DNA of 58,643 nucleotides from Chloroflexota bacterium (GTDB lineage: Bacteria; Chloroflexota; Chloroflexia; JAMCWQ01), in the NCBI GenBank assembly GCA_023480825.1, contig JAMCWQ010000017.1, forward strand, positions 1 to 58,643, given 5' to 3'. Within the stretch, counting starts at the first letter, position 1. Each line of letters opens with the position of its first letter. Made by a program: the position numbers and the translations under genes. Positions 28,017-53,066 of this stretch are shown here, piece by piece. The notes below the pieces were generated by a model, which saw only the letters and a program-made list of their open reading frames with translations, made no database searches and was not told the DNA's origin.

Positions 28017-28029
28017 CGGCTGCGGTCTC

Positions 28030-32113: not shown

Positions 32114-33318
32114 TTCTCCTGATGGCAAGCCGAAAAAGGCAGTTGCCCGCATGCTTCGATCAGTGTCCTTGCGCCGCTGCTCCATTGAAAATTCCGGTCG
32201 ACGTATTCTCTGGCAGCAACGCCCATGGCCCGGGCTTGCTCAGGGTTCTCCAGCAGACTAACAATGCCACCAGCCAGTCCGGCCGGAGTGGAATCGACGA
32301 GCAGGCCCCGGGTCCCGTTGCCAACTGTCTTGGCCGGGCCTCCTTCGTCCACGGATACCACAGGCAACCCCGCTGCTAGCGCCTCCAGCACGGAGAGGCC
32401 AAAAGATTCCACCTTGGCAGGGTTGGCATACACCTGCGCCAGAGCGTAGTAGCTGGCCAGGTCGCCTTCGGGGACGAAACCCGTGAACATGACGCGGTCA
32501 TCAAGGCCGAGGTCAGCTACCAGCCTCTTGAGCCGGTCCATCTCGGGCCCCGAGCCCACTACCAGTCCGCGAATTCCGGGCACCTTGCTCGTGACCAACT
32601 TTATGGAGCGGATGAACAGATCGATCCTCTTGCGAGGGTGCAGGTGGTTGACGGTCATGACCAGCGGAGTCCCCTCCTCGATCCCCAGTCTCTTCCTGAT
32701 TTCCGCCGTTCTCTCTGGGGAGGGCTGTGGAAGATCGACGCCATGCGTGATGACAGTGGAATCGACCCCGTAGACTTCTTGAACCCTCCACCTGCCAAAG
32801 TCACCGTTGACAAGAATGGAATCAGCCTGGTGAACCAACAGACCATCCAGCACACGATACATCGGCAGCGCGAGCCGCGCCACCGGCCCCAGCGCCCCCA
32901 GCCTGGCGGACACCTCGGCGGTGTCCGTGTAAGCGAAGCGCGGTGGTTCGTAGCAGAAATATAGGCATGGGAACTGTACCCTTCTCACTTTTTTGGCCCA
33001 GGCCAGCGCCGGTAGTCCCGGCCCACCGAAGAAGACGGCGGCATCGAAATGGCTCCGGGCTCGTCCCAGCAATCGCGGTGTCAGAGCATACTCCAAGGCG
33101 GCATCCAAATAGTGATTACCCGTCAGCCGGATTTGGCCGTTGGCTCCTACCACCTTGACGGTCTTCGGTAGAGTCTCGCGGCACTCGCCATCGAGGTAAT
33201 GAGTGGCGAGAGTAACCCTGTGCCCAAGTTGCTCCACGAAGTCCGCTAGCTTGATGATAAGTCTCTCCGCACCGGTCAGCTTTTTCAGTTGGGGATAAAC
33301 AAAGAGAAATGACGACAC
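32110..33318 (-). CDS. GT4-family glycosyltransferase
   Basis: Motifs are 'LVVGSGPEMDRLKRL...VMFTGFVPEGDL' and 'ANPAKVESFGLSVLEALAAGLPVVSVDEGGP'. The start is a GTG at 33318. Confidence 0.85.
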   Translation of the reverse strand: MSSFLFVYPQLKKLTGAERLIIKLADFVEQLGHRVTLATHYLDGECRETLPKTVKVVGANGQIRLTGNHYLDAALEYALTPRLLGRARSHFDAAVFFGGPGLPALAWAKKVRRVQFPCLYFCYEPPRFAYTDTAEVSARLGALGPVARLALPMYRVLDGLLVHQADSILVNGDFGRWRVQEVYGVDSTVITHGVDLPQPSPERTAEIRKRLGIEEGTPLVMTVNHLHPRKRIDLFIRSIKLVTSKVPGIRGLVVGSGPEMDRLKRLVADLGLDDRVMFTGFVPEGDLASYYALAQVYANPAKVESFGLSVLEALAAGLPVVSVDEGGPAKTVGNGTRGLLVDSTPAGLAGGIVSLLENPEQARAMGVAAREYVDRNFQWSSGARTLIEACGQLPFSACHQEK

Positions 33319-33339
33319 TAGGCCCCACCGCCAGATAGG

Positions 33340-33516
33340 CTATTCGTCAACCAGCATCACCGGTATGCCATCCTTAATAGGATACCGCCGTCCACACTGC
33401 TCGCACACCAGAGTGCAACCTTCCAGCCTTATGTCGCCCTTACACTTCGGACAAGCCAGTATCGCCAGCAAATCGTCACTGATAGGTTTCCCTTTCGAGG
33501 TGTCACTCTCCGTCAT
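33340..33516 (-). CDS. Trm112/YcaR-like (UPF0434) small zinc-ribbon protein, 58 aa; not in the supplied ORF track
   Basis: My hand translation is MTESDTSKGKPISDDLLAILACPKCKGDIRLEGCTLVCEQCGRRYPIKDGIPVMLVDE*. It carries the family hallmarks 'LLxILxCPxCKG...CxxCxxxYPIxDGIPVML' with four Cys. GGAGGAGGG lies 5 nt upstream of the ATG. The gene fills the gap between 33318 and 33535. Confidence 0.8.
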   Translation of the reverse strand: MTESDTSKGKPISDDLLAILACPKCKGDIRLEGCTLVCEQCGRRYPIKDGIPVMLVDE

Positions 33517-33534
33517 ATGCCCTCCTCCAGCAAG

Positions 33535-35697
33535 TCAGCGCGAGATCGAAACATTGGAAACCGAGATTGATAGAAGTCTTTGGTCGTTACCCAAGCCGAG
33601 GTTTGCGGGAGATTCGGGTGGCTCCTCGCACACCAGTCTCAGCTCAGTTTCGCCTTTGGGTATTTCAAAATGCCCGGTGCTGAATTCGCCGATCGAACCA
33701 GGCTGAACGACGAAGTTGGCAACGAGACGGTCTCCAGCATAAACATCCAAAGTGCGCTTTCGCTGCAAGCTCCACGCTTGGAAATGCAGCTGAACAGACT
33801 CGCTAGTGGAGCTCACCGCTACCAGCGTAGCATGATCAGCCATCCACCTGGTCTGCCCTTGGTCGGTCGATTCCTTGTCGTACCATCCATTCCCGACCTG
33901 AACGAAGAGAGTGTCTCCCTTCTTCTCTACCCGGAACGCCGCAGCTTGGCCATCTTCAAAGTCCGGCGGATGACCGAACAGCGTCTCCGCCATCTTCATC
34001 GCTCTCTGGACGGCATCCGGTTTGTCGAGGTCCTTGTGCACCACGACGTAGCGAATGTTGTAGTAGTCTAGCACATTCTCGCCCATGCTTGGCAAGTCGA
34101 TTTGGTTTATGTCAGGTGCCATACTCAAAGTCACCAACTGCTGGACGCCGGGTGCGCTCTGCACAAAGGGGAAAGGCTGGACGCGCGACGTGTATCCGCC
34201 GACTATCTTCTTCCCGTCAACCGTCTGGTACAGCAAATAACGCGAACGGATGAGGCTGAACGGGATGTCAAGGACCCCAAACTGGCCGGGCTCCTGGGCG
34301 ATCTGCTCATAAACGCTGGGCACCTGGGCCTTTGAGATGGGAAAAGGTATGGCCAAGAACTCGAAACCAATTACCAGCAGCGCCAAGGCCGGGATAGCCA
34401 CATGATACTTCTGGAAGACCGGCCACCGTCTTCGCTTTGCGCTGCGCATAAGAGACAACAAACCCCAGGCCGCCATTACCCCCACGCACAGCATCACGAT
34501 GACGTCGAACCTCGCCACCGCCCGCGAGGTCTTGACGAAGGGAAGGTAGTAGAGCAGCAGGTAGGGTAGCGGTATGTTTGCCTGAAATGCCGTGAAAGTA
34601 GTGCGGCCGGCCACATGCAGTATCGGCCCCAGAGCGAGAACAAAGAAGATGGCGGCCACAACCAGCCAGAACCGGGTTTGCCGCCAGAAGCGCCACAGTC
34701 CGAGACCGGCGAGAGCTAGGGGGAGATACCCGGCAAACACGATCTTCTCCGCCAGTGGGCTGTTGTAGATATCCGTCCACTTGCTGGCAATGGCTCCCCA
34801 GAGCGGATTAAACGGACTGGGCGCGAAGAATGCCAGAAGATCGGGAGAGTGGTGGAGTGTTTGCACGGGATCGTAGACGGCATAGCTGCTTGTCATCGCC
34901 TCTCGTAGCATCGGCACCAGCAAGGGTGATGCTACTACCGTGAATACGCCGAGAACTCCTACGACCCTGACGGCATCGACAGCGAAAATGAGACGTCTCC
35001 GGCGGGCGGTGAATGCTCTATAAGCAAATAGGATGACGGTGAAGATGAGCAGGTACATCACGTAGTACCAATCCGCCAGTGCAGTCAGCGCCAGGAAGAG
35101 GCCAGCAATCGGCACGTATTTCCAGCGCATGGTATCCAGCGCCTTGAGGAGGAACAGGACGTAGAGGGGCAGCCACTCCATCGCTATAAGATTGAGATGG
35201 CCGAGGAGATGGGCGAAATGATATGGGCTGAAGGTAAATATGAATCCTGCCACGAACGAGGCAAGCCACAGTCCGGCTGTGCCTATGTCTTGTCTTCCTT
35301 CCTCCTTGGCGACGTGTCCTCCCAGCAGGTAGTGGGTCAGGAGATACGCGCCCCAGCCGGAAAAGGCGAATCCGGCGAACACGGCGACGTTGTAGGCCAC
35401 AAAGGCATTGAAGACTAACTGAAAAGGCAGGGTCACAAAGGCGTCGAACAGAGTCAGAGTATCAAAGTACAGATTGATGCCTGTCGGGAAGTACAGGAAG
35501 TCGGTATGGAATGGGCCGGAAGCTACCCCAGTGACTACCTGGCGCATCCACCACAGATTCCAGAAGTACTGCCAGTTGTCGCCGTTGGGCCCGGGAATGG
35601 CGTCCCCCATGTGCAACACTAGAGGATAAGTAAGGACAACAGTCAGAACGGCGAATGCAACGAGCGTAATGCCGTGCCGGAGCTTAGGACTACTCAC
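33535..35697 (-). CDS. 720-aa polytopic membrane protein, GT-C-like (family unassigned); paralog of 1838..3997
   Basis: It is colinear with 1838..3997 over its full length, at roughly 55-65% identity by eye. The motifs, TM pattern and C-terminal beta-rich domain are the same. Confidence 0.75.
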   Translation of the reverse strand: MSSPKLRHGITLVAFAVLTVVLTYPLVLHMGDAIPGPNGDNWQYFWNLWWMRQVVTGVASGPFHTDFLYFPTGINLYFDTLTLFDAFVTLPFQLVFNAFVAYNVAVFAGFAFSGWGAYLLTHYLLGGHVAKEEGRQDIGTAGLWLASFVAGFIFTFSPYHFAHLLGHLNLIAMEWLPLYVLFLLKALDTMRWKYVPIAGLFLALTALADWYYVMYLLIFTVILFAYRAFTARRRRLIFAVDAVRVVGVLGVFTVVASPLLVPMLREAMTSSYAVYDPVQTLHHSPDLLAFFAPSPFNPLWGAIASKWTDIYNSPLAEKIVFAGYLPLALAGLGLWRFWRQTRFWLVVAAIFFVLALGPILHVAGRTTFTAFQANIPLPYLLLYYLPFVKTSRAVARFDVIVMLCVGVMAAWGLLSLMRSAKRRRWPVFQKYHVAIPALALLVIGFEFLAIPFPISKAQVPSVYEQIAQEPGQFGVLDIPFSLIRSRYLLYQTVDGKKIVGGYTSRVQPFPFVQSAPGVQQLVTLSMAPDINQIDLPSMGENVLDYYNIRYVVVHKDLDKPDAVQRAMKMAETLFGHPPDFEDGQAAAFRVEKKGDTLFVQVGNGWYDKESTDQGQTRWMADHATLVAVSSTSESVQLHFQAWSLQRKRTLDVYAGDRLVANFVVQPGSIGEFSTGHFEIPKGETELRLVCEEPPESPANLGLGNDQRLLSISVSNVSISR

Positions 35698-37807
35698 CGG
35701 CGCCTCCGGCGTTTGTTTTGACGCTCACCCAATCAACAGCCACCCCGGCATACCTGGCATCCGAGCCATCGCCCTCCTCCGACATCTGCGAGCGAAACTC
35801 CACAGTCAGGGGCGTGTTGGCCTTACTCACATCCGCTACTTTGAAGGTGAAGAGCTGGAAATCCTCTGTCGCTTTGGCCGTCCCCACATCTTTGCCATTT
35901 ACCAGCACCTGTACTGGTAGTGCATTCGGGGACAGGCTCGCCATACGGATGCTGACCTCATCTGCGGTCGCGATAGGCCCGAAGCGGACCTCCGCATTCT
36001 CCCTCGCCCGGCGATAGGACACGCTATCTTTGTTTTCCGCCGGCCAGAAGCCGTCCACGTATCCGGCGTCCAGATAGCCGACGTCGACTCTCTGCCTCGA
36101 CTGCACGGGAAGCCATTTGAAGGTCCAGTCTAGGAGCGCCGCCTCGTCGTCGACATTGAACTGCTTTGCCGTCTTACTCGTATCGCCAGCCCGCCGGTAA
36201 ATCTCGCCAAGCCCGCCATGAGAACGCGGGTCATACGGGTTGACTTGGAGCGCCATCTCATACTGCTTTGCCGCCTCATTCGTCTTGCCGGTCGCCAGAA
36301 GCGTATTCGCCAGCCCTAGCCGTGCGTCGAGAAAATCCGGCTGGAGGCTCAGGGCAGCCTGATAGAATTTCTCCGCGTTGCCGTAATCGCCGACCAAGTA
36401 CGTCTGGTCGGCCTGTGTCTCAAGGCTTTGCCGGTCGAGGACCCGGCCGAGGACCAGGGGCACATTCTGGTAGGCGAACAGTTCCAAAATGACGAACAAA
36501 ACTGCCAGGGCAAGGGCGGCGCTTGCCCACCACTGTTTGCGCCACCGGAAGGCCCTTTCCACCACGGTAACGGCGAAGCAGGCCAGACCGATTATCAAGA
36601 AAGGCATCATGGGCAAGCGATAGCGCAGTCCGATGAAGTCGACGGGAGTGAATAGGGCAAGGACGAAGCAGAAGCCCAGCCATGCTCCGAACAGGGCTGC
36701 CGGCCTCCTCCGGCCGGAAAGGAACAACCCTGCCGGTCCAAGCGCCAGCGCCGCGAGGAAGGGGATGTCGCCCAGCAGTGTGCTTGCGGCGCGCTCCCCC
36801 CAAGAGACGCCTTTATCCACTCGAATAAGGTCCGGCAGATACTCCAGTTTTGCCAGGTAGAAGGCATTGGTCACCGCACTTTCCAAAGCCTGGCGAGGAT
36901 GCGATACCATATAGGACAAAGCTTGCTGGTAAGCATAGCGGTCGCGCTCGGCGTAGCCAGCTATCGGCAGCAAGACCTTCTCCATTTCCGATTTGTCCTG
37001 AAAGCCGCCATTCGCCAGCAGGAAGTTGTACCCACCGGTGGTGTCGACGGGAATGAAGGAATGGTAGACGAGTGCGTTACGCAGAGTCCAAGGGGACACC
37101 ACCATAACGAACGCAATGAGGAACACCGCGACCGTAGTCCAGCCCTTGTGCTTTTCCCGCCTGGCGGATAACCACACCCATATGGCGGCCAGCGGCAGGA
37201 AGAGGAGTGCATAGGAACGCGTCAAGGTGGCCAGGCCGAGGAGAACGCCGCCCGCCGGAAGCCATAGAAGCCGGCTGCCATTGACCGACCATCTGGTCAG
37301 CGCGTACATCGCCCCCAGCAGGAGAACGATAAACAGGGTCTCGGACATGACCAAGTTGCTGATGGTGGCCAAGGGTAGGTAGAGAGCGCAGGCCGCCATA
37401 GCGACGAGAGCGCTGCGCTCGCCGGCAATGCGCCGTGCAATGCCATAGACAAGTAGAACAGCAGTCAGTCCAAGCACCACCTGAACAAGGCGAATATCCA
37501 GTACAGAATATCCAAACAACTTGAAGACGCCAGCCAGGAAGAATATGTAGAGGGGCGGCCTAACCCACTTTGCCGGGTCGTAGTAGCCATCGCCCCCCGC
37601 CAGCATGGCAGCCCGGCCGTAGTATTCTCCCTGATCGCCGCCTTGGGGAACCTGCACCGTGGTGTCGAAATAATATACCCTCAGCAGAAGGGCGGCGAGC
37701 AGTATGGCGGAGATGGCAACAGGAATGACCCACGCCGGAAGAGGGCGTGCAGTCTGCGCCGGGACTGCGATTTCGGATTCGTTTTGTTGATCAGTCATAG
37801 CCGCCAA
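35690..37807 (-). CDS. ArnT/PMT_2-like GT-C glycosyltransferase with TPR repeats and a C-terminal 'YRx-xGVxVDWV' module
   Basis: The N-terminal body has about 11 TM segments, with 'GDQGEYYGRAAMLAGG...WVRPPLYIFFLAG'. The TPR block is 'GDYGNAEKFYQAALSLQPDFLDARLGLANTLLATGKTNEAAKQYEMALQVNPYDPRSHGGLGEIY'. The C-terminal module spans about nt 35720-36110. The start is the TTG at 37807 or the ATG at 37798. Confidence 0.75.
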   Translation of the reverse strand: MAAMTDQQNESEIAVPAQTARPLPAWVIPVAISAILLAALLLRVYYFDTTVQVPQGGDQGEYYGRAAMLAGGDGYYDPAKWVRPPLYIFFLAGVFKLFGYSVLDIRLVQVVLGLTAVLLVYGIARRIAGERSALVAMAACALYLPLATISNLVMSETLFIVLLLGAMYALTRWSVNGSRLLWLPAGGVLLGLATLTRSYALLFLPLAAIWVWLSARREKHKGWTTVAVFLIAFVMVVSPWTLRNALVYHSFIPVDTTGGYNFLLANGGFQDKSEMEKVLLPIAGYAERDRYAYQQALSYMVSHPRQALESAVTNAFYLAKLEYLPDLIRVDKGVSWGERAASTLLGDIPFLAALALGPAGLFLSGRRRPAALFGAWLGFCFVLALFTPVDFIGLRYRLPMMPFLIIGLACFAVTVVERAFRWRKQWWASAALALAVLFVILELFAYQNVPLVLGRVLDRQSLETQADQTYLVGDYGNAEKFYQAALSLQPDFLDARLGLANTLLATGKTNEAAKQYEMALQVNPYDPRSHGGLGEIYRRAGDTSKTAKQFNVDDEAALLDWTFKWLPVQSRQRVDVGYLDAGYVDGFWPAENKDSVSYRRARENAEVRFGPIATADEVSIRMASLSPNALPVQVLVNGKDVGTAKATEDFQLFTFKVADVSKANTPLTVEFRSQMSEEGDGSDARYAGVAVDWVSVKTNAGGAGE

Positions 37808-37847
37808 CTAGCATACTCCAGGCTACGGATAGACCCACCGCGACGCT

Positions 37848-39929
37848 TCATCCGGTGGGCTCCAAGCTAACCCAGTCCAACATGACCCCTAGTAACCTGG
37901 GGTCGGAAAAGCCGGGTGTGAAGATATCAGATTTTATCTCGACAACCAAGTTCTGGCTGGGAGACATGGTGCCTGCCGGCAACTCAATGCTATAGACTGC
38001 CCACCCGCCTGAGGCAACTATGCTGGCAACCGGCTTGCCGTTGGCCAATATGTCGGCCACCGGAGCCGGGAGGCCCTCCGGCCTCCAGCCGCGCATTCGC
38101 AGCGTCAAACGATAACCGGTGGCTGCCGGCGCTCCGGGAAACCGCACAAAGGAATCCCCTGATGTCCAACGGAAAGTAGTTGTCCCATCCTGTTCGCCAA
38201 GCTGCATACCTCGCACATACCCCAGGTCAAGGCCGTCACCTACATCGATTCTGGAGCTGGGCGGCGGGGAAATCTTCTCCCACGCCCAGCTAGTGGGGTT
38301 CTGCTCGTTTACGATGCTGTCCGTGAACAGGCGCCTGGCCGGATCCATCTCGCCGCTGTTGCGGTATATGTCCCCCAACAGTACTTTTGTGCCGAAATAC
38401 TGCTTCCCGTCTTGCAACAACTTCTCTGCCTCTTGCGGGTTGCCCTTCAATATCTCCACGCGGGCCAGCTCAACGCTGGTCTCCGGGATTGTCCTGTCGG
38501 CCTTCTCGAATTCCGTCTGTGCCTGATCAAGTTCGCCCTGATCAAGAAGGAGATCACCGGCGGTGAGATGAGACTGGGACAGCCAGGCCTCAAAACCGAG
38601 CGATGTGAACCCTATTGGATAAGTTGGGAGAACTGTGAAAAGAAACACCGCACAGAGAGCGCCAGCTGCCGCAATGCGCGTGCGGGAAGGAATCGCTGAA
38701 CGTAGCTGGGGAGCCAAGCTCATCACTGCGTAACCGGCGTATGGAAAGAGAAAGGGCAGGACCGGAATACGAAAACGCGCAATTGCGAAAAACACCACAG
38801 CCAAGAGACAGGATACGCCAACCCATAACAGGACCAGCGCCTGCGAAGCATCATGTTTTGCGGTTGCCAGGCCGACCAGCGCCAGACACATGAGGACAAC
38901 GTACAGAGAATCGTCCATGAGGAACAACGCTATCAGGTAAGGGCCAGACACCAGGCCATGGCTGAACCCGTGCACGAAGCGCTCATCCCCGGAGAAGTTG
39001 ATTCGCCACAAGCCCGCCAACCCTTCAGTACCCCTTCCGATCCAACCCAAGGGATCGGATAGGATATCGTGCAAAGCACCGCTGTAAGCCAGCGACTGCC
39101 GCTCCGGAATGCTCGTGGCCTGCGAAAGGGCGGAATAGATGTCCGAACTCGGTCCCTGATGAGAAGCCAGCCAGAGATTCACGGCGCCTGTAGTCTCGAC
39201 CGGGATGAAGGCGTGATAGGCCAAGAAGTTCCTAGCAGTCCATGGAAGCAGTAGAACCACGAACATTGCCAAGAAGACCCCGGCTGCTGCTAAGCGCTGC
39301 CTCCGGCCGCTGGTACTGAAGAACAGCCAGATGGCAACAAATGGCACAAATGCAATCAGCGAGCCTTTGGTGAGGGTAGCCATGCTCATCAGAGCCCCGG
39401 CTGCTCCCACCAAGAGATATCGCCGGTTGGCGGACCGGCTCTTGAGCAAAAGAAGAACGCCGGCAGCGAAGAAAGCCAGGAACAGCGTCTCGGTCAGCAC
39501 CAAATTGGGGAAGATCGCGAAGGGCAGGTAGACTGCGCAGGCCGCAGCGGTAAACAGACCGACCCGCCGGTTGAACAACTCTTTACCGATGAGGTAGAAG
39601 AGGACTATCGTCAGGACGCTTATGCCGTGCTGAATGGCCAGGATTGGCGTGACCTGCGGACCCCAGAGCTTGATGGGAATGGCAAGGAAGACGATATACA
39701 CAGGAGGTCGCAGCCACGGACCGGAATCGAAGAACGAAAAGCCCCTACCCTGGGCCAGGCTCAGCGCCGCCCCGAAGTACTCGCTTTCGTCGCTAACAAA
39801 GTCTCTTCCCGCCAGATACATGGCCATTCCAACACGGAGAAACAGGCCTACGGCGATGATCGCCAGCAGCCATCTGTACCTCCAAAGGAAATCCTTGGCC
39901 CATTTCTGGTATCCGGTTTCTATCCTCAC
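37848..39929 (-). CDS. ArnT/PMT_2-like GT-C glycosyltransferase with TPR-like repeats and a C-terminal 'FRW-LGVMLDWV' module (paralog of 35690..37807)
   Basis: Motifs are 'DESEYFGAALSLAQGRGF...WLRPPVYIVFLAIP' and a TPR-like stretch 'LLLDQGELDQAQTEFEKA...ILKGNPQEAEKLL'. The C-terminal module spans about nt 37851-38260. The GTG start forms a GTGA overlap with the upstream stop. Confidence 0.75.
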   Translation of the reverse strand: MRIETGYQKWAKDFLWRYRWLLAIIAVGLFLRVGMAMYLAGRDFVSDESEYFGAALSLAQGRGFSFFDSGPWLRPPVYIVFLAIPIKLWGPQVTPILAIQHGISVLTIVLFYLIGKELFNRRVGLFTAAACAVYLPFAIFPNLVLTETLFLAFFAAGVLLLLKSRSANRRYLLVGAAGALMSMATLTKGSLIAFVPFVAIWLFFSTSGRRQRLAAAGVFLAMFVVLLLPWTARNFLAYHAFIPVETTGAVNLWLASHQGPSSDIYSALSQATSIPERQSLAYSGALHDILSDPLGWIGRGTEGLAGLWRINFSGDERFVHGFSHGLVSGPYLIALFLMDDSLYVVLMCLALVGLATAKHDASQALVLLWVGVSCLLAVVFFAIARFRIPVLPFLFPYAGYAVMSLAPQLRSAIPSRTRIAAAGALCAVFLFTVLPTYPIGFTSLGFEAWLSQSHLTAGDLLLDQGELDQAQTEFEKADRTIPETSVELARVEILKGNPQEAEKLLQDGKQYFGTKVLLGDIYRNSGEMDPARRLFTDSIVNEQNPTSWAWEKISPPPSSRIDVGDGLDLGYVRGMQLGEQDGTTTFRWTSGDSFVRFPGAPAATGYRLTLRMRGWRPEGLPAPVADILANGKPVASIVASGGWAVYSIELPAGTMSPSQNLVVEIKSDIFTPGFSDPRLLGVMLDWVSLEPTG

Positions 39930-41161
39930 TTATGCGAATCCTGAGCTACTGCTTCTTCAAAGACCTGCAGATACTGCCTTGCCGTCGATTCCCAGTTCAA
40001 CTCGGTTTCCACCCGATGCCGGTTGGCCTGTCCCATCTGCGCCCGCAATGCTGGGGACAGTAAGAGGCGCGATATCGTTGCGGCAAGGGCCTGGGAGTCT
40101 CTTTCTTGCACAAGATACCCATTTTCACCGTCCCGGACGACATCGGGAATACCGGCAATCCGGCTGGCCACCAGTGGCTTTCCGGATGCCATCGCCTCCA
40201 GTAAGACATTGGGCAAACCATCGACGTTGCCGCGTTTGTCACGCACGGACGGCAACACGAAGAGATCTGCTGCCGAGAACAGGCTGATAATCTTATCACG
40301 CCTCACCGGCCCGGCGAGTATCAGGTGATCCGCCACGCCATGCCGGGCGGCCAGGTCCCTCAGTTCCGCTTCGAGGTCTCCGCCGCCCGCGATGACAAAG
40401 CGGACGTTAGGGACGGTTTTCAGCACGTCGGGAATCGCCTGGACTAGATACTCGAATCCTTTCTTGTATACGAGCCGTCCGACGGCCAGAACTAGAAGTT
40501 GCTCCGGAAGTAGGCCCAATTCTTCACGTATTCCGTCGGAGCTATTCGTTCCTCCAAACTCGCCCGGCTCTACGCCATAGGGGATCACCCTGCTGCGCTC
40601 CGGGGCTGCTCCCAATTGCACCGCGCGCGATAGCAACTCCGTGGAGCAGGAGGTTGTGCGGGCGGCGCGACGAAAACTAGCCGTGGCCGCGATTCCGGCA
40701 GGCATCAAACGCTCGGCCAGGAACACATCGGACCCATGCAGACTGACGACGAGCGGTATCCCGCGCCGCCTGGCGACTGCCGCAGCCACCGGTCCATTGG
40801 GGATCACCCAGTGCGCCTGAATCACGTCGAACCGGTGCTGCCCGCTCAACCGCCACAGTTCCCGTGCGGCCCCTACTAAAGCGGCAGGAGCCATGGCAAA
40901 TACGCTCCCCTTCACTTTGACGTCTGCTTCAAGTGATTCGGCATATCCCCACTTGTTCAACGATCGCCAAGGAGCGTACTTGAAGAAATGCAGGTATACG
41001 CCATGCTCGCACCGGCTGTGGCGCAATTCGGGGTGGTACGGCGCGAGCACATGGACCTCATGGCCAAGACTCGCGACGTTACTGGCTATAGATTCGACAA
41101 AAGGCGCTGTCACATCACCCGGGTACTTCGGATAGGACGACGCCAGCATGCATATTCGCAA
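39926..41161 (-). CDS. GT4-family glycosyltransferase
   Basis: Motifs are 'FVIAGGGDLEAELRDL...LILAGPV' and 'VLPSVRDKRGNVDGLPNVLLEAMASGKPLVASRIAGIPDVV'. The ORF track gives 39926..41233. I prefer the TTG at 41161, which yields (M)RICMLASSYP, has GGGAGAG 6 nt upstream, and lies 13 nt after the upstream stop. The ATG at 41149 is also possible. Confidence 0.8.
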   Translation of the reverse strand: MRICMLASSYPKYPGDVTAPFVESIASNVASLGHEVHVLAPYHPELRHSRCEHGVYLHFFKYAPWRSLNKWGYAESLEADVKVKGSVFAMAPAALVGAARELWRLSGQHRFDVIQAHWVIPNGPVAAAVARRRGIPLVVSLHGSDVFLAERLMPAGIAATASFRRAARTTSCSTELLSRAVQLGAAPERSRVIPYGVEPGEFGGTNSSDGIREELGLLPEQLLVLAVGRLVYKKGFEYLVQAIPDVLKTVPNVRFVIAGGGDLEAELRDLAARHGVADHLILAGPVRRDKIISLFSAADLFVLPSVRDKRGNVDGLPNVLLEAMASGKPLVASRIAGIPDVVRDGENGYLVQERDSQALAATISRLLLSPALRAQMGQANRHRVETELNWESTARQYLQVFEEAVAQDSHK

Positions 41162-41174
41162 GGCAGACTCTCCC

Positions 41175-43649
41175 TCATGTCGGCAACCGGTAGATGATGA
41201 TCCCCTCCGATTCATAGACCTTCTTGAAGCCAAGTACTTCCTTTCCCAGATACAGGTCTTTTAACGCCGGCCTTAGCTTCCAGTCGGACAGGTGGTCCAA
41301 TTGGAGATAGGTTACGCCATACCGCCGGGCAATCGTCATGATCTGGTCGAAATCCGCATTCGGGATCATCACCGACCGTCTTTCGCTATGGAACGAGACC
41401 TCCCATGGGTTCCTCGTCATCACCACTGCTTCCTGTGGCGTCTGATCGGCGATCCAATCACTTGCCTGCACGATGGCCGTGGGTGATGTGTACACGGAAA
41501 AGTCTCCTCTGAGCTGGTTCACCGAGGGCCAAGCAAGGGCGACAAATACCAAAGGGACCAGGAAGCCGCCAACCCAGGTCGCGGCTCCTCTGTCGCGCGC
41601 CCTCTGGGCGACCAAATCGTTTACCCAGAAAAGGAAGTTCATGCCCAGCAGGTACAACCAGGGAATGAAGAATAGGAAGTAGCGATCTTCGTAATGCCAG
41701 TAAACGCAGACGAAGACAGCCATCACGGCAAAGCTGGCAAGCAGCAGCCACAGGAGTCTCCGTTGCCGGGCGTTGAGTACAAATGCCCCTAGAAGAGCGA
41801 GAGCAAAGGCGAAATAGGAGAATGTGCTGCCGTCAACGAAGTCCTTGGCCAAGTTGCCGAACTCTTGGCTAATGACGTATGTCACCCAGTCAAAACCGTA
41901 GCGTATTAGCAGACCGGGGCCCGGCAGGTTGCCGTAGTAGATGTTGTATATGTTCTCCCACGGGGGATTATACTTCAGTATCCAGGCGTCATAAGATTCG
42001 GTGGAGTACAGCGGGCTATGAAATAGGGCCAGGTTTCGGACAAACCACGGTGATACCACCACCAGGGCTACCGCCGCGGTGATAGCCAGCCAGCTGATAG
42101 AACGGGCTGGGCCGCGCCTACGCCACATGTAGACAAGGCAGAGAAGGGCAATGGCCACCACCAACAACGCGCCGGTGGGTTTTGCTAGTATCAACAGGCC
42201 CGCAAAAACCCCAGAAAGGGCAAACGATGGTATCGTGCCCCAGAAATGGTCCAGACGCCCCAGAACCGGCCCAGAAGTGGACTCCTCTGGCGGGCGGCCC
42301 GCATCGGCATTGCTGAAAAGCGTGAACAAGAACAGCAGGAAGAAAACGGCAAACGGGAGATCGTTGATCGGGTAGGCCACCATACCGACGAAGTACGGGT
42401 GGATGGCAGTCAAGACGGCTGCGGCAAATCCAACCCTCCGGTCGAAAAGCCTCGCTCCCACCAGGTAGATACTGAGCGCCAGCACCATCGACAGGAGCAG
42501 ATTGGGCACCTTCGCAGCCACTACATTGGCCCCACCAACCAGGAATGCCGGGACGAGCAGCAGCGGCTCCAAAGGGGGCCAGGTATCCACCGCATGCCGT
42601 ATTCCCGCCGGATATTGTTGGTAGAACTGGGCTGCGTAGTCGACAGTCATCCCTCGACCAGAGACGATGTTCCGGGCAACGACCCCGCTGTCCGCGTAAT
42701 CGGCATGGCCGATGAAATCCATGTTCGTAATGAGCACAACTTCGAAGACTGCTAACAAGACCAAGAAGCCGGTGAGCATATAGAGAGCAGTACGGCGGTG
42801 TGCAACCCGGCTGATATGAGACTGCAACGCTCGCCCGATAGCCGGCAGGTTATATGCTGAGCCAACCACAGCAAGAGCGACGGCCAGCCAGGGCAGATAC
42901 GCGGCCGCGATGACTCGTTGCAGGGTAAGCCCAATACCCAGCAGCAGTTCGAAGAGACCCGCAGAGATCAGCACTGTGCGGGCGCCGGCATGTAGACTGA
43001 TGAGCAAGAGCTCAAGGATCAATGCAGCGACGATGACATACCCCACAACCGGCAAAGGCGGCGGGGCAAGCGGGGAAAATGCTGTTCCCAGGGGCCGGGC
43101 CGTTATCGAATCCACCATTACTCCCAGAGAACGGGCGTCGCCGGCAGGGGTGAAAGACGCAGACTCGATGCGAAGCTCGATATCGCCGGTCGGAGTCGAA
43201 CGGCCGGGGATGGAGAAGCTGTAAGTTTGCATCGTCCCGCTCGACTGAAAGGACGCAACTTGCTGGCCATCTTCGAAGATCCGCACCACCGGCGGTTTCT
43301 TCCCTACCGGTCTCCATCCGCTCAACCGGACTGAGACCAGCCGCGCCGCCCCATCCGCCACACCAGGAAGGTTGACAATCGAATCACCGGTGGTCCAGCG
43401 GTAGGAATACTCGGCAACTCTCTCATCGCCGTTGAACCCCTGCACATAGGCCTGATCGCCGATTCCGCCGATATCGATGAGCCACTCAGGTTTGTATTGA
43501 TAGCTCATAGCGACCACGACCAGCCCGACCAGTGCGATCACCATGCTGGCCAGCAGCCAGTCGGCCCGGTGTTCATCCAACTTGAGGGACTCAAGGGGTC
43601 TTCGGACCTTGGCTAGCTCTATTTTCTTCTTGGAATTGGCTTCTGTCAC
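41175..43649 (-). CDS. 824-aa GT-C-like (ArnT/PMT_2-type) membrane protein with the N-terminal 'DIGG-YRW-LGV' module and a C-terminal soluble domain
   Basis: The module spans about nt 43091-43502 ('WLIDIGGIGDQAYVQGF...YSYRWTTGDSIVNLPGV...GWRP...QTYSFSIPG...GDARSLGVMVDSI'). The body contains 'HADYADSGVVARNIVSGRG' and more than 12 TM segments. Confidence 0.75.
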   Translation of the reverse strand: MTEANSKKKIELAKVRRPLESLKLDEHRADWLLASMVIALVGLVVVAMSYQYKPEWLIDIGGIGDQAYVQGFNGDERVAEYSYRWTTGDSIVNLPGVADGAARLVSVRLSGWRPVGKKPPVVRIFEDGQQVASFQSSGTMQTYSFSIPGRSTPTGDIELRIESASFTPAGDARSLGVMVDSITARPLGTAFSPLAPPPLPVVGYVIVAALILELLLISLHAGARTVLISAGLFELLLGIGLTLQRVIAAAYLPWLAVALAVVGSAYNLPAIGRALQSHISRVAHRRTALYMLTGFLVLLAVFEVVLITNMDFIGHADYADSGVVARNIVSGRGMTVDYAAQFYQQYPAGIRHAVDTWPPLEPLLLVPAFLVGGANVVAAKVPNLLLSMVLALSIYLVGARLFDRRVGFAAAVLTAIHPYFVGMVAYPINDLPFAVFFLLFLFTLFSNADAGRPPEESTSGPVLGRLDHFWGTIPSFALSGVFAGLLILAKPTGALLVVAIALLCLVYMWRRRGPARSISWLAITAAVALVVVSPWFVRNLALFHSPLYSTESYDAWILKYNPPWENIYNIYYGNLPGPGLLIRYGFDWVTYVISQEFGNLAKDFVDGSTFSYFAFALALLGAFVLNARQRRLLWLLLASFAVMAVFVCVYWHYEDRYFLFFIPWLYLLGMNFLFWVNDLVAQRARDRGAATWVGGFLVPLVFVALAWPSVNQLRGDFSVYTSPTAIVQASDWIADQTPQEAVVMTRNPWEVSFHSERRSVMIPNADFDQIMTIARRYGVTYLQLDHLSDWKLRPALKDLYLGKEVLGFKKVYESEGIIIYRLPT

Positions 43650-43651
43650 GG

Positions 43652-46600
43652 CTAGTATTCCAAGTGCGCTGTAATCTTGATTTTCGCTCCGGATTCTAGT
43701 GCCGGTATAACAATCTGGTCTTTTTGGATTTCCAGTCGCTCCCCATTGGCCGCTGCCGCACTGGCTACGATGCCCGGGAGAGTAAGGGTGGTGCCCGTTA
43801 TTCCATCCTTTCCCGTATTCTGTAATGTTATGGAGAGGTCATTCCCATTTTGAGTCGACTCGACCTTCAGATTGCGCACCGCGAGATAGTGCTCCACGAT
43901 ATTGGTCAGTGTATCGACAACCAAACCATCTTCCCGTTTGGACGCTGCATAGGCAACCACCCGATCCCACATCTGCATCCCATTACTATCTGCCACGGAC
44001 TCAGGGTGCGTCCAAAGGCTGGTAAATCCTCGACGCGCCAGCACCTCATCGATACTCTGGAGAGCCGTCTTCTCGCTATCCGCTGTGTCCTGCAATTCTT
44101 GATCCGGGTACACCAGCAAGGGAGGATTGCTCGCTATGCCGGAGAGTTCGAACGGATCGCCGTACTGGTAAAGTCTCGTCACGGCCAGGACGCCGCGATC
44201 GGCAAGCGCCTGATAGTGCGGCAGAGTGAGGCTATTGCTGGCGGCCCAGGGAAAAGCAAATGTCTTAGCCGGTCCCAAGCCGTGCTCGGACGCTACGCTA
44301 TTCCACTGATCGAGGTCGGTCTTGAACTCCTTCAGCGAGGTCCCGCGTGCATACAGGTGTCCAAACGTATGGGACTCGATATCCTGGCCGGCAGCTATCA
44401 TCTTATCCACCAGATCACCGAAGTACCAACCGGGATCCGTCTGGTACGTGCCATAAGGGTCGAAGCTATACCACGGGTGCTCCGCCCAGTAGTTCGATGC
44501 CCAACCATTCTTCTGGCTGGCCCATTTGTAGGTAGGGTCACCCGCAAATTGCTGATGTTCGGTATTCCCGTAGAGCAGGTCATAGCCGGTGGAATAAAAA
44601 GTCCCTTGCACTCCATACTTCTGGAAGATCGTTAGCAGATTCTCGGCGCCCTGCCTCATCTTTAGCCCATGCTCGGTAGCTCCGCTTACGCTAGGCTCTG
44701 CCGCCCCCCGGGAGTGTATAGCACCGCCCATGGCCGTCTCCCAATCGAAGGTAAATGCCAGCGCGGCCTTCCCGAAGTCCCGAATCGGCTCCACTCTCAC
44801 CCCTGCTTGGGAGAGTCTCACATCGTCGACGAAAGCCGTGCCGTCAGCTGAACGAAAGCGCACACGCAACCCCGTGGCGTCCAAGGGGGCGATGAAACCA
44901 AGGCTGTTCATCCCCCAAAGAGACCCGGCCCTCTGGAAGCTGGAATTGGTTCCAACCGGTTGCCTGAGGTCGTTCTCCCAGATAAAATCCACCCAGTAAG
45001 CCCCATTGCCCGTGGCGTACCAGGTGAGTTGGTGCTGCTGCCCGCTACCTACGTACACTAATGCGGACTCCACCGCTCCTGCGCCGGGTCCCATTTCCGC
45101 CGAGGACTTACTGTTCCGGCCGTTGGAGGCGATGTGCGCTGTCCCGGTGAGCTTCCAGCCTGACGCCGGTCCCGAGGAATCGGTGCTCTCGAAGGAAGCA
45201 TTAGACAGCAGATTGCACCCTGCATCAAGAAGCGCACTTTCTCTCGCGGCATAGTTCCCGCTTGCTTCTGCCGTATAATACCAGGAGAGCGCTCCGATTA
45301 CTGCTATCAGACAGACTGCAGGGACTGCCGCCCGCAAGGGATGGATTTGCCAGGCGGCTTTCGAGTACACCCGGGTCAAGCCGATCATTACCAGCACGGC
45401 CGCGCCCGCTCCACAAGCGAGAAGCAAGTAGATTCCCGTATCGAGGAGCCGGGGGGCGAATGTGTCCAGGGAATGGCTATTCAGTACTGTGCCGAGAGCC
45501 TTGAGCCATTGCTGCTCGGACGCAGGGTGACCGAACATCGCCTGCAAGCTCAAATAGGAACGCACAATGGAGAAGCCCGCCACAGGGGCAATGGCGCCCC
45601 AGGCCGCCACGCGCCAATAGCGGCTTCGTACGCTCAAGACTCGCTCGAATATGACCCCTAGCCCGGCGCCGAGCAAAGGGATGATCGACAGAATGTACCG
45701 AGTGTCTTCAGAGCCGCCCCCTGAGTACGTGCGGTGCATGGACAAGACTCCGAGCAAGATCAGAAAGCCGATCAGGATTAGCGATAGCTCCCGCCACTTC
45801 CTTCTGGCAACGATTGCCAGGCCGGCAAGCGAGAGCAGCAAGATCGGGCTGACGGCAAATATGCCATTTTGCCCGAAGAGGAAGAACCTCAGCCCTTCGA
45901 CAATTGGAGTGGTGTACGTGGTGGACAAGGCGCGCGCCCACTCGAAGTGATACTGGTACGTGTATGATGTGGCCAACGGAGAACCGAAGTTCAACCAGTT
46001 GTAGGCCACTAGCGTTGCCAGCGCCGGCAATGCCCCGGCAATTGCAGTTTCCCAATGCTGGAGCTTGGCCCGCTGTAGCAGGATATATAAGCCGAAGGGA
46101 ATGAACAGCAGGACATTGATATAGTCGACAAGCACCGCATAGCCGAGCAGCAGTCCCGAGCAAAAGAGCAAGGCGGGAAAGCGTGATAGCCTGCGAGAAC
46201 CAGCCCATCTTATGGCCAGGTAGGCAGCGCCCGTCACCAGAGCAGCGGACAAGGCGTGGTTGTAGAAGAGCGTGGAGTACTTCCAGAGCAGGGTACCCAA
46301 GCCCACGAGCAGGGCCGCGACCAGCGCCGAAGGAGCCCTGACACCTAGCTCTCTACCAATTCCGTACATGCCGAGAATGGCAAAAGCTCCGGCAATTGCG
46401 GAGAGCACGCTCACCGAGGATTCCAGCCCGGATTGTCCGATAATTCCCAGCAGCATCAAAGCATCGCCTGCCAGATAGAAAGGAACCGCAAGAAAGGCGG
46501 TCCCTGGGGCCCGGTCCGAGTAGAAATGGCCACCATAGTAGCTCAAGTCTAGGTAGGCATCAGGAGGCGGTATAGAGCCCAAGTCTTGCCTGGCGGTGTA

Positions 46601-46768
46601 GTCGATGTAGTGGTCGATGGCTGTTGAATGATAGTCCACTATAGAACGCGTCAGGGCGAAGTGGCTGCCATCGTTCGTGGAGACAATTCCCGCGGAAGAG
46701 ACAAAGAAGACCCAGCCGACAGCAATTACGAGCAGCGCTAGAAGCCACCTCCGCCACGCCTTAGCCAT
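43652..46768 (-). CDS. 1038-aa fusion: polytopic membrane domain (GT-C-like) plus CBM4_9-like beta-sandwich plus divergent CE4/NodB polysaccharide deacetylase plus C-terminal beta domain
   Basis: aa 1-500 are multi-TM, with 'YYGGHFYSDRAPGTAFLAVPFY'. aa 517-655 contain 'NLLSNASFESTDSSGPASGWKL...', a CBM-like stretch (nt 44804-45220). aa 668-925 form the NodB-like domain, with 'FTFDWE' (nt 44741-44755), 'HTFGH' (nt 44357-44371) and 'LWTHPES'. Confidence 0.7.
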   Translation of the reverse strand: MAKAWRRWLLALLVIAVGWVFFVSSAGIVSTNDGSHFALTRSIVDYHSTAIDHYIDYTARQDLGSIPPPDAYLDLSYYGGHFYSDRAPGTAFLAVPFYLAGDALMLLGIIGQSGLESSVSVLSAIAGAFAILGMYGIGRELGVRAPSALVAALLVGLGTLLWKYSTLFYNHALSAALVTGAAYLAIRWAGSRRLSRFPALLFCSGLLLGYAVLVDYINVLLFIPFGLYILLQRAKLQHWETAIAGALPALATLVAYNWLNFGSPLATSYTYQYHFEWARALSTTYTTPIVEGLRFFLFGQNGIFAVSPILLLSLAGLAIVARRKWRELSLILIGFLILLGVLSMHRTYSGGGSEDTRYILSIIPLLGAGLGVIFERVLSVRSRYWRVAAWGAIAPVAGFSIVRSYLSLQAMFGHPASEQQWLKALGTVLNSHSLDTFAPRLLDTGIYLLLACGAGAAVLVMIGLTRVYSKAAWQIHPLRAAVPAVCLIAVIGALSWYYTAEASGNYAARESALLDAGCNLLSNASFESTDSSGPASGWKLTGTAHIASNGRNSKSSAEMGPGAGAVESALVYVGSGQQHQLTWYATGNGAYWVDFIWENDLRQPVGTNSSFQRAGSLWGMNSLGFIAPLDATGLRVRFRSADGTAFVDDVRLSQAGVRVEPIRDFGKAALAFTFDWETAMGGAIHSRGAAEPSVSGATEHGLKMRQGAENLLTIFQKYGVQGTFYSTGYDLLYGNTEHQQFAGDPTYKWASQKNGWASNYWAEHPWYSFDPYGTYQTDPGWYFGDLVDKMIAAGQDIESHTFGHLYARGTSLKEFKTDLDQWNSVASEHGLGPAKTFAFPWAASNSLTLPHYQALADRGVLAVTRLYQYGDPFELSGIASNPPLLVYPDQELQDTADSEKTALQSIDEVLARRGFTSLWTHPESVADSNGMQMWDRVVAYAASKREDGLVVDTLTNIVEHYLAVRNLKVESTQNGNDLSITLQNTGKDGITGTTLTLPGIVASAAAANGERLEIQKDQIVIPALESGAKIKITAHLEY

Positions 46769-48392: not shown

Positions 48393-48395
48393 GAC

Positions 48396-49382
48396 CTAGT
48401 CTCCGGCCAAGGCTTTCGCCCGCTTCGCCTCCAACCGCGCTGGATAACGCAGCCAGACTAGGAATCCGGTTCCGAGGTTTGTCAGGTTCAAGACGAGGAT
48501 CAAGGCGGAAACGCTAATGGCATATTCCGGCTGGAACCCTAATTGTTGGAAGATCACTATCAGAGTCACGTCCCTCGTGCCGATTCCACCAACTGAAACG
48601 GGGATGAGGGAGGCGATCGTAGCCAACGAGGCGACGGCGACCAGTTGCACGGGACCGATGGAAAGCCCAAGTGCCGGGAAGAACAAGTAGACCCGAAAGA
48701 ACGACAGCGCGAACGACAGAACTGTGATGACGCTCACTTCGACAATTGTGCTCTTCGACATGGTGAGCATATCGAGGTGCTCGCGTGAGATGTAGCGCTG
48801 AATGAAGCCCTTCACTCTTGGCGGCAGCAAATGTTTGGAGATGGCGCTGAATACCGCGCTGCGAAAGCGCGAGCTCACCAGGAAGGCAACGGCGATCAGT
48901 ACCACGGCGATTACGAGCACCAATACGGCGAGCTCGCTTTGGAAAGCGGCCCAGAACACAAAGACACTCGAGAGAGCGAAGAAGGCAAGGATTACGATGT
49001 CGAACAACCTGTCGAGAACGACGCTGGCAAGCGAGGGAGCCAGCCCATTCCCCAGCGCCTTCAAATACCATGCTTTTACAGCATCTCCCGCCTGGCCTGG
49101 AGTGAAACTACCGGCGGAGAGGCCAATGGAGTAAAGCTGCCAAGCGGCGGAGAATGACAATTCGATGCCATAGCTCCTAAGGATGACTATCCAACGCCAC
49201 GACTTGATGGCGATGAAGGGAATCACCAGCAGTATGGAGATGATGACCAGAGTAGGATTGACCCTTAGCAAGCTATCAGCCAACTGCTGGACATCTACCA
49301 GACGGTAGACGATCGCGGCGAACACGAGCGTGCCGACGACCCGTAGGACCCATTTGAGCCAGCTAGAGTTTAGCTTTGCCAT
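48396..49382 (-). CDS. UPF0104 / LPG-synthase-TM-type 'flippase-like' membrane protein
   Basis: The 328-aa protein has about 8 TM segments. The motif 'FIAIKSWRWIVILRSYGIELSFSAAWQLYSIGLSAGSFTPGQAGDAVKAWYLK' fits this family, which commonly accompanies polyprenyl-phosphate GT2 enzymes. Confidence 0.65.
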   Translation of the reverse strand: MAKLNSSWLKWVLRVVGTLVFAAIVYRLVDVQQLADSLLRVNPTLVIISILLVIPFIAIKSWRWIVILRSYGIELSFSAAWQLYSIGLSAGSFTPGQAGDAVKAWYLKALGNGLAPSLASVVLDRLFDIVILAFFALSSVFVFWAAFQSELAVLVLVIAVVLIAVAFLVSSRFRSAVFSAISKHLLPPRVKGFIQRYISREHLDMLTMSKSTIVEVSVITVLSFALSFFRVYLFFPALGLSIGPVQLVAVASLATIASLIPVSVGGIGTRDVTLIVIFQQLGFQPEYAISVSALILVLNLTNLGTGFLVWLRYPARLEAKRAKALAGD

Positions 49383-49388
49383 GAGTCT

Positions 49389-50312: not shown

Positions 50313-50358
50313 TTTGCGCTTTTCCCCTTCTCAGGATTCGGCAAGATTTAGTTCACAG

Positions 50359-50385
50359 ATTATAGCACACCCGGAATATCGGCAA
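50359..50385 (-). promoter_or_regulatory. extended -10 sigma70-type promoter for the 27-gene operon
   Basis: On the minus strand the sequence reads TTGCCG (50385-50380), a 15-nt spacer, then TGcTATAAT (50367-50359). It lies in the only sizeable gap (187 nt) between the two minus-strand gene blocks, about 40 nt upstream of the GT2 start. Confidence 0.55.
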
Positions 50386-52005: not shown

Positions 52006-52006
52006 G

Positions 52007-53053: not shown

Positions 53054-53066
53054 CTTCTCTCCAGGC

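Follow-up and report, generated by a model that had tools for sequence, protein, structure and literature searches.

The locus raises the question of what is done by a module of about 135 residues that recurs in its membrane proteins and that carries no domain name. The window, by which we mean the whole stretch of 58,643 nucleotides analyzed here (contig JAMCWQ010000017.1 of Chloroflexota assembly GCA_023480825.1), was found to hold eight copies of this module, on eight multi-pass membrane proteins, all encoded on the minus strand. A first-pass annotation made from the DNA letters had described the same ordered motif string in six places; the six open reading frames and motif strings it named were all verified, the six segments were all found and were homologous by BLASTP and HMM, and their recomputed coordinates differed from the earlier ones by about 15 nt at most. 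Copy A (27480..27890; HMM E = 5e-59) follows the N-terminal helix of a GT-C-like membrane protein without annotation, protein A (26076..28016 or 28124), and copy B (29485..29898; E = 1e-59) belongs to protein B (28030..30087; MCL5256401, named "hypothetical"). Copy C (31565..31969; E = 3.8e-55) is part of protein C (30074..32110 or 32185), which without the module is 28 to 31% identical to A and B, and copy D (43077..43487; E = 7.8e-59) is part of protein D (41175..43649), a GT-C of the PMT_2 type (PMT_2 match of 37.8 bits). Two further copies lie at the extreme C termini of their hosts, copy E (35693..36097; E = 2.6e-49) in protein E (35690..37807; MCL5256406, named "GT39 family"; PMT_2 E = 1.2e-16, plus TPR) and copy F (37851..38258; E = 3.9e-57) in protein F (37848..39929; MCL5256407; PMT_2 E = 1.3e-11, plus TPR). 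The remaining two are divergent: one, with the pattern GWY..E..RWM...NDxRxLS (33541..33891), is at the C terminus of a 720-aa membrane protein (33535..35697), and the other (1844..2200) is at the C terminus of a paralogous membrane protein (1838..4192).

The likeness among the six modules is far above chance expectation. In pairwise BLASTP, with an effective database size of 2e7, matches were obtained for 13 of the 15 pairs (all but C-E and D-E), at 29 to 40% identity and E values of 1e-7 to 1e-31 (A and D, 40% identity, E = 2.5e-31). When the six copies were made into an HMM and the six-frame translation of the window was searched with it, exactly those six were returned, the next match having an E value of 0.47. 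Failure of the segments to align significantly had been set beforehand as a refuting test, and alignment was significant both pairwise and profile to profile. The "degenerate version" that had been suggested to close both 720-aa paralogs also proved real when an HMM of 53 diverse family members was used, and in hhalign (33535..35697, HMM E = 4.1e-8, hhalign probability of 96.3%, E = 2e-9; 1838..4192, HMM E = 4e-8, hhalign probability of 96.9%, E = 1.8e-10). An ortholog of 33535..35697 at locus L004 scored 1.5e-16, and without the module protein 1838..4192 is 61% identical to protein 33535..35697. The beta-rich middle domain of the neighboring protein G, used as a negative control, showed no sequence relation to the module in hhalign (probability of 0.2%).

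That the module is not a named domain, as had been supposed, was borne out in that neither Pfam nor NCBIfam held a model matching at threshold. The only recurring Pfam signal on the module was CBM60 (PF16841), always below the cutoff: module A scored 22.8 bits (E = 1.3e-4) against a gathering cutoff of 28.2 bits, and sub-threshold matches were seen in 9 of 53 diverse members (best E = 8.4e-5) and in none of the other 44. DUF7532 gave one sub-threshold match, in one tandem-array protein, and an NCBIfam search of the module-bearing regions gave no match. The precomputed Pfam annotation, which is very recent and already includes PF26626 and PF28474, assigned no family to protein B or to 77 of its 78 homologues and assigned only PMT_2 and TPR to proteins D, E, and F; the 78th B homologue (P0237) received only PMT_2 and DUF8201. 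PF26626 (DUF8201) was considered as a name for the module and was rejected, having no match to B or D; it follows PMT_2 in P0237, which is a homologue of D as well, and so most likely covers the C-terminal domain of that protein. Homologues, where named at source, were called "hypothetical" or were named for their GT-C part only. An exhaustive HMMER search with the module profile put the size of the family at 2,795 clusters at 50% identity. A 4,871-aa PKD-repeat protein of Bacteroidota (P0041) with 28 weak stretches was set aside as a cumulative false positive (best single stretch E = 6.5e-4). The module represents a large sequence family without a name.

A beta-sandwich had been guessed from the alternating hydrophobic pattern, and AlphaFold2 and Foldseek agreed with it. 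The isolated module (copy A) was modeled as an all-beta domain of nine strands (pLDDT 90.2, pTM 0.86), and in full-length protein B (pLDDT 92.6, pTM 0.91) the beta strands span residues 65 to 196. The best Foldseek matches of the module were to CBM35 (2w1w, 2wz8, and 4qb2), CBM6 (8j3x, 1us2, and 5fui), and CBM36 (1w0n), and other top matches were to the carbohydrate-binding domains of BcsB and to the Ca-binding toxin receptor-binding domain CDTb RBD1. TM-scores of the top matches were 0.5 to 0.68; those to CBM35, CBM36, and CDTb RBD1 had a probability of 1.00, E values of 2.7e-4 to 1e-3, and TM-scores of 0.54 to 0.64, and CBM6 5fui and CBM35 2w1w were recovered again with the full-length model of B. 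As modeled, the fold is a galactose-binding-like beta-jelly-roll of the CBM6/35/36 type. PDB sequence searches with the 6- and 53-sequence profiles returned no relative, i.e., no solved CBM similar in sequence. Across 170 modules the conserved signature comprised E22 (92%), R30 (94%), W31 (98%), D117 (82%), R119 (94%), and G122 (98%); D5, D11, and D126 were common, and the CBM60 signal in Pfam spans module residues 64 to 131. Foldseek also matched domains that are not lectins (toxin receptor-binding, phage lambda gpJ tail-fiber, and ephrin-receptor ligand-binding domains), so that the fold alone is no proof of sugar binding.

The modules had been placed outside the cytoplasm, and as a prediction this was supported by the charge distribution in all eight host proteins, assessed by positive-inside analysis of the loops next to the helices that flank the module. 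Since the all-helix hydropathy count was ambiguous in E and F, probably owing to juxtamembrane helices, the argument rests on the charge of these flanking loops. In A to D, the segment preceding the first helix has 7 to 10 Lys plus Arg residues and basic residues occur after the first helix beyond the module. Here the module is preceded by an N-terminal in-to-out helix and followed by more membrane helices, the nearest of these beginning within about 10 residues of the module's last strand. For E and F, as for the two 720-type proteins, an Arg/Lys-rich loop before the last helix places the tail outside; the module is at the end of the TPR arm in E and F and closes a predicted external tail of about 260 residues in both 720-aa paralogs. 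From this charge bias and from GT-C topology we infer an extracytoplasmic location for all eight copies in the window. The family is not always extracytoplasmic, since a divergent branch represented by a radical-SAM fusion (P0029) has neither a signal peptide nor a membrane helix.

The reading that we favor is that the module is probably an extracytoplasmic jelly roll of the CBM6/35/36 type that binds the envelope glycan serving as acceptor or product of its enzymes; glycan binding is suggested by the fold, the partner enzymes, and precedent. The short tethers in A to D would hold the module at the outer face of the membrane, just ahead of the GT-C core, where it would bind an envelope glycan that the enzymes extend or decorate using lipid-linked donors. 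Such binding would make the acceptor locally more concentrated and would place the chain at the active site. The membrane-proximal position in A to D, joined to the analogy drawn in the first-pass annotation, is also all that speaks for the module being a chain-length ruler or a donor-side element that recognizes the polyprenyl-phosphate sugar donor. We regard this as very improbable, because a compact jelly roll of 135 residues lacks an extended element of the kind a ruler would use and the C-terminal copies past the TPR arm are far from the membrane-embedded donor site.

The enzymes that carry the module bear on its role as well. In 66 full-length homologues the partners were PMT_2 (14 cases), GT87 (10 cases), ALG6/8 and DUF6541 (2 cases each), and YfhO (1 case), with sulfatase, GDSL esterase, and radical-SAM partners as single cases; the family occurs mainly on GT-C enzymes (PMT_2, GT87, ALG6/8, and YfhO). 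Some homologues contained tandem arrays of four to six modules, a frequent arrangement for CBMs. Proteins D, E, and F exceeded the Pfam cutoff for PMT_2. No prior annotation existed for A, B, or C; the membrane part of the B model matched STT3 (8age_A, E = 1.1e-5), PglB (3rce_A), Pmt4 (9i5k_A), and ArnT (5f15) over 410 to 500 columns, so that by modeled fold B is a GT-C like STT3, PglB, and ArnT, and A and C are its paralogs. The two 720-aa-type proteins (33535..35697 and 1838..4192) had no Pfam or NCBIfam match. In B, D331 (IDLPWH), 9 residues past helix 301-322, was invariant in 56 sequences, and an acidic motif follows the first helix in E (DQGEYY) and F (DESEYF), which points to a conserved, putatively catalytic acid at the start of the core's first extracytoplasmic loop in the A/B/C family and in E and F.

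These partners weigh on a second explanation, in which the module is an architectural or oligomerization domain that binds no glycan and either caps the GT-C rigidly or pairs with the modules of neighboring enzymes, bringing the GT-Cs of the cluster together in one complex. [quoted passage not shown] We nevertheless hold this explanation to be rather unlikely: tandem arrays of four to six modules and partners of soluble type (sulfatase, GDSL esterase, and radical SAM) are typical of ligand-binding modules and not of enzyme-specific caps, a module carried on the tip of a TPR arm (E and F) is unlikely to pack on the membrane core, and conservation falls on polar or aromatic residues (E, R, W, D, and R), as is typical of sugar sites.

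The first-pass annotation had also described the module as shuffled among the enzymes of one pathway. This stood insofar as the eight copies are spread over four host types (A/B/C, D, E/F, and the 720-aa pair) but not within each type, where the copies stem from whole-gene duplication. Across the family at large, most N-terminal modules grouped together and C-terminal ones grouped with C-terminal or short ones. Frequent recent shuffling was rejected, since the nearest neighbors of N-terminal modules were N-terminal in 68 of 84 cases and hosts within a type are paralogous. Among the homologues retrieved here, the A/B/C family was found only in MAGs of Chloroflexia, Thermomicrobiales, and Ktedonobacterales.

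Pfam scans showed a surrounding glycan-assembly gene cluster (10998..58254, minus strand) that encodes many GT4 and GT2 enzymes, a Wzx-like flippase, DUF2079, a deacetylase, and a WbpB/E/D-like sugar-modification trio, along with further GT-C enzymes at 46761..48392, 43652..46768, and 10998..12425. When related loci were gathered with the full-length B-family alignment, 25 in other Chloroflexota MAGs were 15 kb or longer, and 18 of these held two to five modules. An SLH-domain protein is encoded near one homologue (L003). A cell wall or S-layer anchor, which would bind finished wall polymer and thereby bring the enzymes to places where the envelope grows, is consistent with this neighbor, with the CBM-like fold, and with partners of differing chemistry (sulfatase/phosphotransferase-like and esterase), which would fit a common address tag. 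Such an anchor is nonetheless quite unlikely in our view, as the short tethers of A to D confine the module to the membrane surface, away from the wall layer, and the documented GT-C precedents bind acceptor (PMC3044687; PMC11127046).

A further idea concerns the whole set of enzymes. The N-terminal arrangement of amphipathic helix, membrane helix, jelly roll, and three membrane helices may be a self-contained, topologically neutral cassette, whose even helix count lets it precede any GT-C core; it is duplicated in tandem in two homologues (P0020 and P0160). This insertion cassette, with the module as a common docking address for GT-C enzymes, would constitute a Chloroflexota-specific extracytoplasmic glycan assembly line, in which a single growing envelope polymer, or the partner enzymes, might serve as the docking site for up to eight different GT-C enzymes; we offer this as speculation that is unlikely to hold.

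About 2,800 clusters (50% identity) bear a domain that no database names, and most of them are membrane glycosyltransferases called "hypothetical." A definition of the domain would make many unannotated GT-C enzymes accessible as a class, the A/B/C family among them. On the reading that we favor, the domain would indicate which element recognizes the acceptor in an uncharacterized pathway for envelope polysaccharide; the cell envelope of this phylum is poorly understood. If binding is shown, the module would be the founding member of a new CBM family (CAZy) tied to synthases and not to hydrolases.

The closest structural likeness is to known CBMs, since CBM35, CBM6, CBM36, and CBM60 were the best structural matches to the module (TM-scores of 0.54 to 0.62, normalized to target). 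These four are calcium-associated jelly-roll modules of glycoside hydrolases. Identity to CAZy CBMs was 10 to 19% in the Foldseek alignments listed, and the module sits on synthases, whereas those CBMs sit on hydrolases. BcsB (Foldseek 5eiy_B, 9fmt, and 6yg8) likewise has periplasmic jelly rolls beside a membrane glycan synthase, guiding the nascent polymer, but forms a subunit of its own in a GT2 synthase, with lower TM-scores (about 0.5). The analogy to Emb and AftD, GT-C enzymes with an appended carbohydrate-binding sandwich, which had been put forward from the sequence, is described in published work (PMC3044687; PMC11127046). Emb and AftD chains were absent from the PDB sequence searches with either profile and from the top 50 Foldseek matches. 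The CBMs of EmbC, EmbA/B, and AftD are, like the module, extracytoplasmic beta-sandwiches on a GT-C with CBM6 and CBM36 as neighbors, and these mycobacterial arabinosyltransferase CBMs have been linked to the binding of acceptor and to chain extension (PMC3044687; 10.1101/2019.12.22.885152); in EmbC, acceptor is bound by the C-terminal jelly-roll CBM (subdomain II), which is similar to CBM6 and CBM36 (PMC3044687). The module differs from these in that it also occurs at the N-terminal end, enclosed by membrane helices, and as arrays of tandem copies and in that its host is a member of the Chloroflexota. In GT136 ORF12, the O-antigen ribofuranosyltransferase of Citrobacter youngae, a C-terminal CBM binds the unmodified acceptor polysaccharide (PMC11127046). 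Here too a periplasmic beta-rich CBM is appended to a GT-C; by description, that CBM is immunoglobulin-like and was dispensable under the conditions tested, whereas the module is jelly-roll/CBM35-like. The ORF12 system consists of a GT2, a small membrane protein, and the GT-C (PMC11127046), and a comparable trio is present in the window at 46761..50312.

The six ORFs and the motif strings quoted for them in the first-pass annotation were all present in the translations of the window, and its overall reading of the module holds: the finding is real. The module lies at the N-terminus of proteins A (26076..28016), B (28030..30087), C (30074..32113) and D (41175..43649) and at the extreme C-terminus of proteins E (35690..37807) and F (37848..39929). 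An HMM of the six copies, run against the six-frame translation of the window, matched exactly those six (E 1e-49 to 1e-59), all on the minus strand (A, 27480-27890; B, 29485-29898; C, 31565-31969; D, 43077-43487; E, 35693-36097; F, 37851-38258), and the next best match had an E value of 0.47. Pairwise BLASTP of the ~135-residue segments returned alignments for 13 of 15 pairs, with 29-40% identity (E 1e-7 to 1e-31; effective database size 2e7). The degenerate version proposed for two 720-aa paralogs was borne out as well: a profile broadened to 53 diverse members of the family matched the C-termini of the proteins at 33535..35697 and 1838..4192 (E 4e-8 each), with hhalign probabilities of 96.3% and 96.9%, and the beta-rich middle domain of the neighboring membrane protein G, taken as a negative control, gave 0.2%. 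In an ortholog of the 720-aa protein from another Chloroflexia MAG the module copy was less diverged (E 1.5e-16). This brings the number of copies in the window to eight.

From the six-copy alignment, AlphaFold2 produced an all-beta model (pLDDT 90.2, pTM 0.86), which in Foldseek against the PDB matched jelly-roll sugar-binding and receptor-binding domains with TM-scores of about 0.5-0.68 and 11-19% identity. These matches included CBM35 (2w1w, 2wz8, 4qb2), CBM6 (8j3x, 1us2), CBM36 (1w0n), CBM29, CBM22, the carbohydrate-binding domains of BcsB, iota-toxin Ib and C. difficile CDTb RBD1. Because these are its structural neighbors and PDB sequence searches returned no solved structure related to it, the module is predicted to be a galactose-binding-like fold outside every established sequence family. 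Its signature reads G-F-x3-E ... R-W-[TS] ... R-P ... N-G ... T-F-x-P ... D-x-R-x-L-G-V-x-V-D; over 170 modules (module-A numbering) the best-conserved positions were E22 (92%), R30 (94%) and W31 (98%), followed by R59 (81%), P60 (84%) and G74 (84%) and, toward the C-terminus, D117 (82%), R119 (94%), L121 (87%) and G122 (98%).

HMMER, run exhaustively against 1.84 billion representative proteins, yielded 2795 representatives at E ≤ 1e-3, 880 of them at E ≤ 1e-10. No curated model covering the module was found in Pfam or NCBIfam. Module A scored 22.8 bits against Pfam CBM60 (cut-off 28.2), sub-threshold CBM60 matches occurred in 9 of 53 diverse members (best E 8.4e-5), and the remaining Pfam signals were scattered noise from other beta-sandwich families; an NCBIfam scan of module-bearing regions gave no match. 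The precomputed Pfam annotation of the protein collection, recent enough to include PF26626 and PF28474, placed no family whatever on B and 77 of its 78 homologues, and only PMT_2 and TPR on D, E and F. The 78th homologue, P0237, carried PMT_2 and DUF8201 only. We rejected PF26626 (DUF8201) as a name for the module; since it is listed after PMT_2 in P0237, it is most likely the C-terminal domain of D-like proteins. That soluble domain, of ~110 residues, lies at 41175..41510 (minus strand) in protein D, which has no DUF8201 flag, unlike P0237. Source names of homologues were "hypothetical protein", "glycosyltransferase family 39 protein" and, in one IMG record, ArnT-like glycosyltransferase; the window genes, from a Chloroflexota MAG, bear locus tags M1319_012xx.

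Pfam identifies E and F as PMT_2 (GT39/83-like) enzymes that also have a TPR arm, and D as PMT_2-type; A, B and C had no existing annotation. The membrane part of a full-length B model from a 56-sequence alignment (pLDDT 92.6, pTM 0.91) matched STT3, PglB, AglB, Pmt4 and ArnT over 410-500 columns (E 1e-5 to 2e-3), and B is thus modeled as a distant GT-C. In alignment and model, D331 ("IDLPWH") is an invariant Asp directly after helix 301-322, a position corresponding to that of the catalytic acidic residue of GT-C enzymes. Outside the module, A, B and C were 28-31% identical to each other, E and F 30% and the two 720-aa proteins 61%, and BLAST found no similarity of A, B or C to D, E or F; the modules of A, B and C nevertheless share 31-40% identity with the D and F modules. 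On this basis, the eight copies fall into four host types, enlarged through whole-gene duplication.

Partners among 66 full-length homologues were PMT_2 (14), GT87 (10), ALG6/8 and DUF6541 (2 each), and YfhO, sulfatase, GDSL esterase and radical SAM (1 each). Of 166 domains in the top 150 matches, 82 were N-terminal, 25 C-terminal and 23 internal, and 36 lay in short, probably fragmentary proteins; nearest-neighbor analysis showed that position is mostly kept within lineages. Some family proteins carry arrays of 4-6 modules. Some B-family proteins of ~950-980 aa (P0020 and P0160; loci L028, L030, L032, L040, L042 and L047) have the whole N-terminal unit of helix, module and helices twice in succession, spaced about 250-290 residues apart.

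The extracytoplasmic placement suggested earlier is also predicted from the charges flanking the helices in A to F and the 720-type pair. In A to D, the N-terminal stretch ahead of the first helix is basic (K+R 7-10) and the module begins 2-9 residues after that helix; the module's last strand is at most about 10 residues from the next helix, which basic residues follow. The B model comprises an amphipathic helix (13-40), a membrane helix (42-59), the module (65-196) and helices 206-227, 234-294 and 301-322, the last preceding the D331 loop. Given its length, helix 234-294 could cross the membrane twice; in that case the helix number ahead of the GT-C core would be even, placing module and catalytic loop on the same, outer side. 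The short tethers, together with the prediction of full-length B as a rigid body, suggest a serious rival reading, in which the module is a scaffold or oligomerization domain. In E, F and both 720-type proteins, an Arg/Lys-rich loop ahead of the last helix puts the tail outside, in agreement with the external C-terminal domains of ArnT, PMT and STT3-type enzymes. We know of no description of an N-terminal module clamped between membrane helices. The metagenomic homologue P0029 (920 aa) combines five divergent "GWY..E..RWM" modules with a radical-SAM domain and has no signal peptide and no membrane helix; this branch is presumably cytoplasmic.

The minus strand from about 11 kb to 58 kb forms one long glycan-assembly cluster with many GT4 and GT2 enzymes, a Wzx-like flippase, DUF2079, a methyltransferase and a B12/radical-SAM enzyme. 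The last of these (21973..23247) adjoins a WbpB/WbpD/WbpE-like trio (23251..26065, minus strand; consecutive genes for a GFO/IDH/MocA oxidoreductase, a hexapeptide acetyltransferase and a DegT aminotransferase), a hint that the polymer contains a 2,3-diacetamido sugar. Genes C, B and A follow one another closely on the minus strand, the C stop overlapping the B start (30074..30087), an arrangement suggesting that the three paralogs are translationally coupled. For A, the ATG at 28016 is the likelier start codon, since the longest ORF (TTG at 28124) would run 95 nt into B. Protein G (43652..46768, minus strand, 1038 aa) starts with a GT-C-like membrane region (LA_3751/3752-family match) and ends with a polysaccharide deacetylase; the beta-rich domain between them (~aa 500-680, "NLLSNASFE...GW" style) has no sequence relationship to the module. 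A Trm112p-like zinc-ribbon ORF of 58-60 aa (~33340..33516, minus strand), found in at least two Chloroflexota genomes, directly follows the 720-aa-type gene and precedes a GT4; in the related locus L004 (ORF at 3986..4168) one extra gene (518 aa) separates it from the 740-aa protein. Upstream of the cluster, the opposite strand (4903..10987, plus) encodes a pair of Nramp-family transporter paralogs and a P-type cation ATPase, which seem to have no connection with the glycan genes. Members of the B family turned up exclusively in MAGs of Chloroflexia, Thermomicrobiales or Thermomicrobia and Ktedonobacterales and in unclassified Chloroflexota MAGs. In these genomes, 18 of 25 loci, each spanning at least 15 kb, had 2-5 modules, typically with 3-4 N-terminal-module genes side by side and a 720-aa-type protein bearing the module at its C-terminus. 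Adjacent genes at 46761..50312 (minus strand) for a GT-C of the PMT family, a membrane protein resembling LPG_synthase_TM and a GT2 have a layout similar to that of three-component extracytoplasmic glycosylation systems of polyprenyl-P-sugar synthase, flippase candidate and GT-C (PMC11127046).

Fold, extracytoplasmic position, a strong preference for GT-C hosts, tandem arrays and the polar/aromatic signature fit a candidate carbohydrate-binding module that would hold the acceptor or product glycan; for a ruler we found no specific support. The module is a new, sizeable, unnamed sequence family of CBM-like accessory domains on GT-C enzymes, and such domains are of an already known kind. The C-terminal CBM of GT136 ORF12 has documented binding to the O-antigen acceptor and was dispensable under the test conditions (PMC11127046). 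For the C-terminal jelly roll of EmbC, a role in holding the acceptor or product glycan is experimentally documented, and, like the module, it has CBM6 and CBM36 as structural neighbors (PMC3044687).
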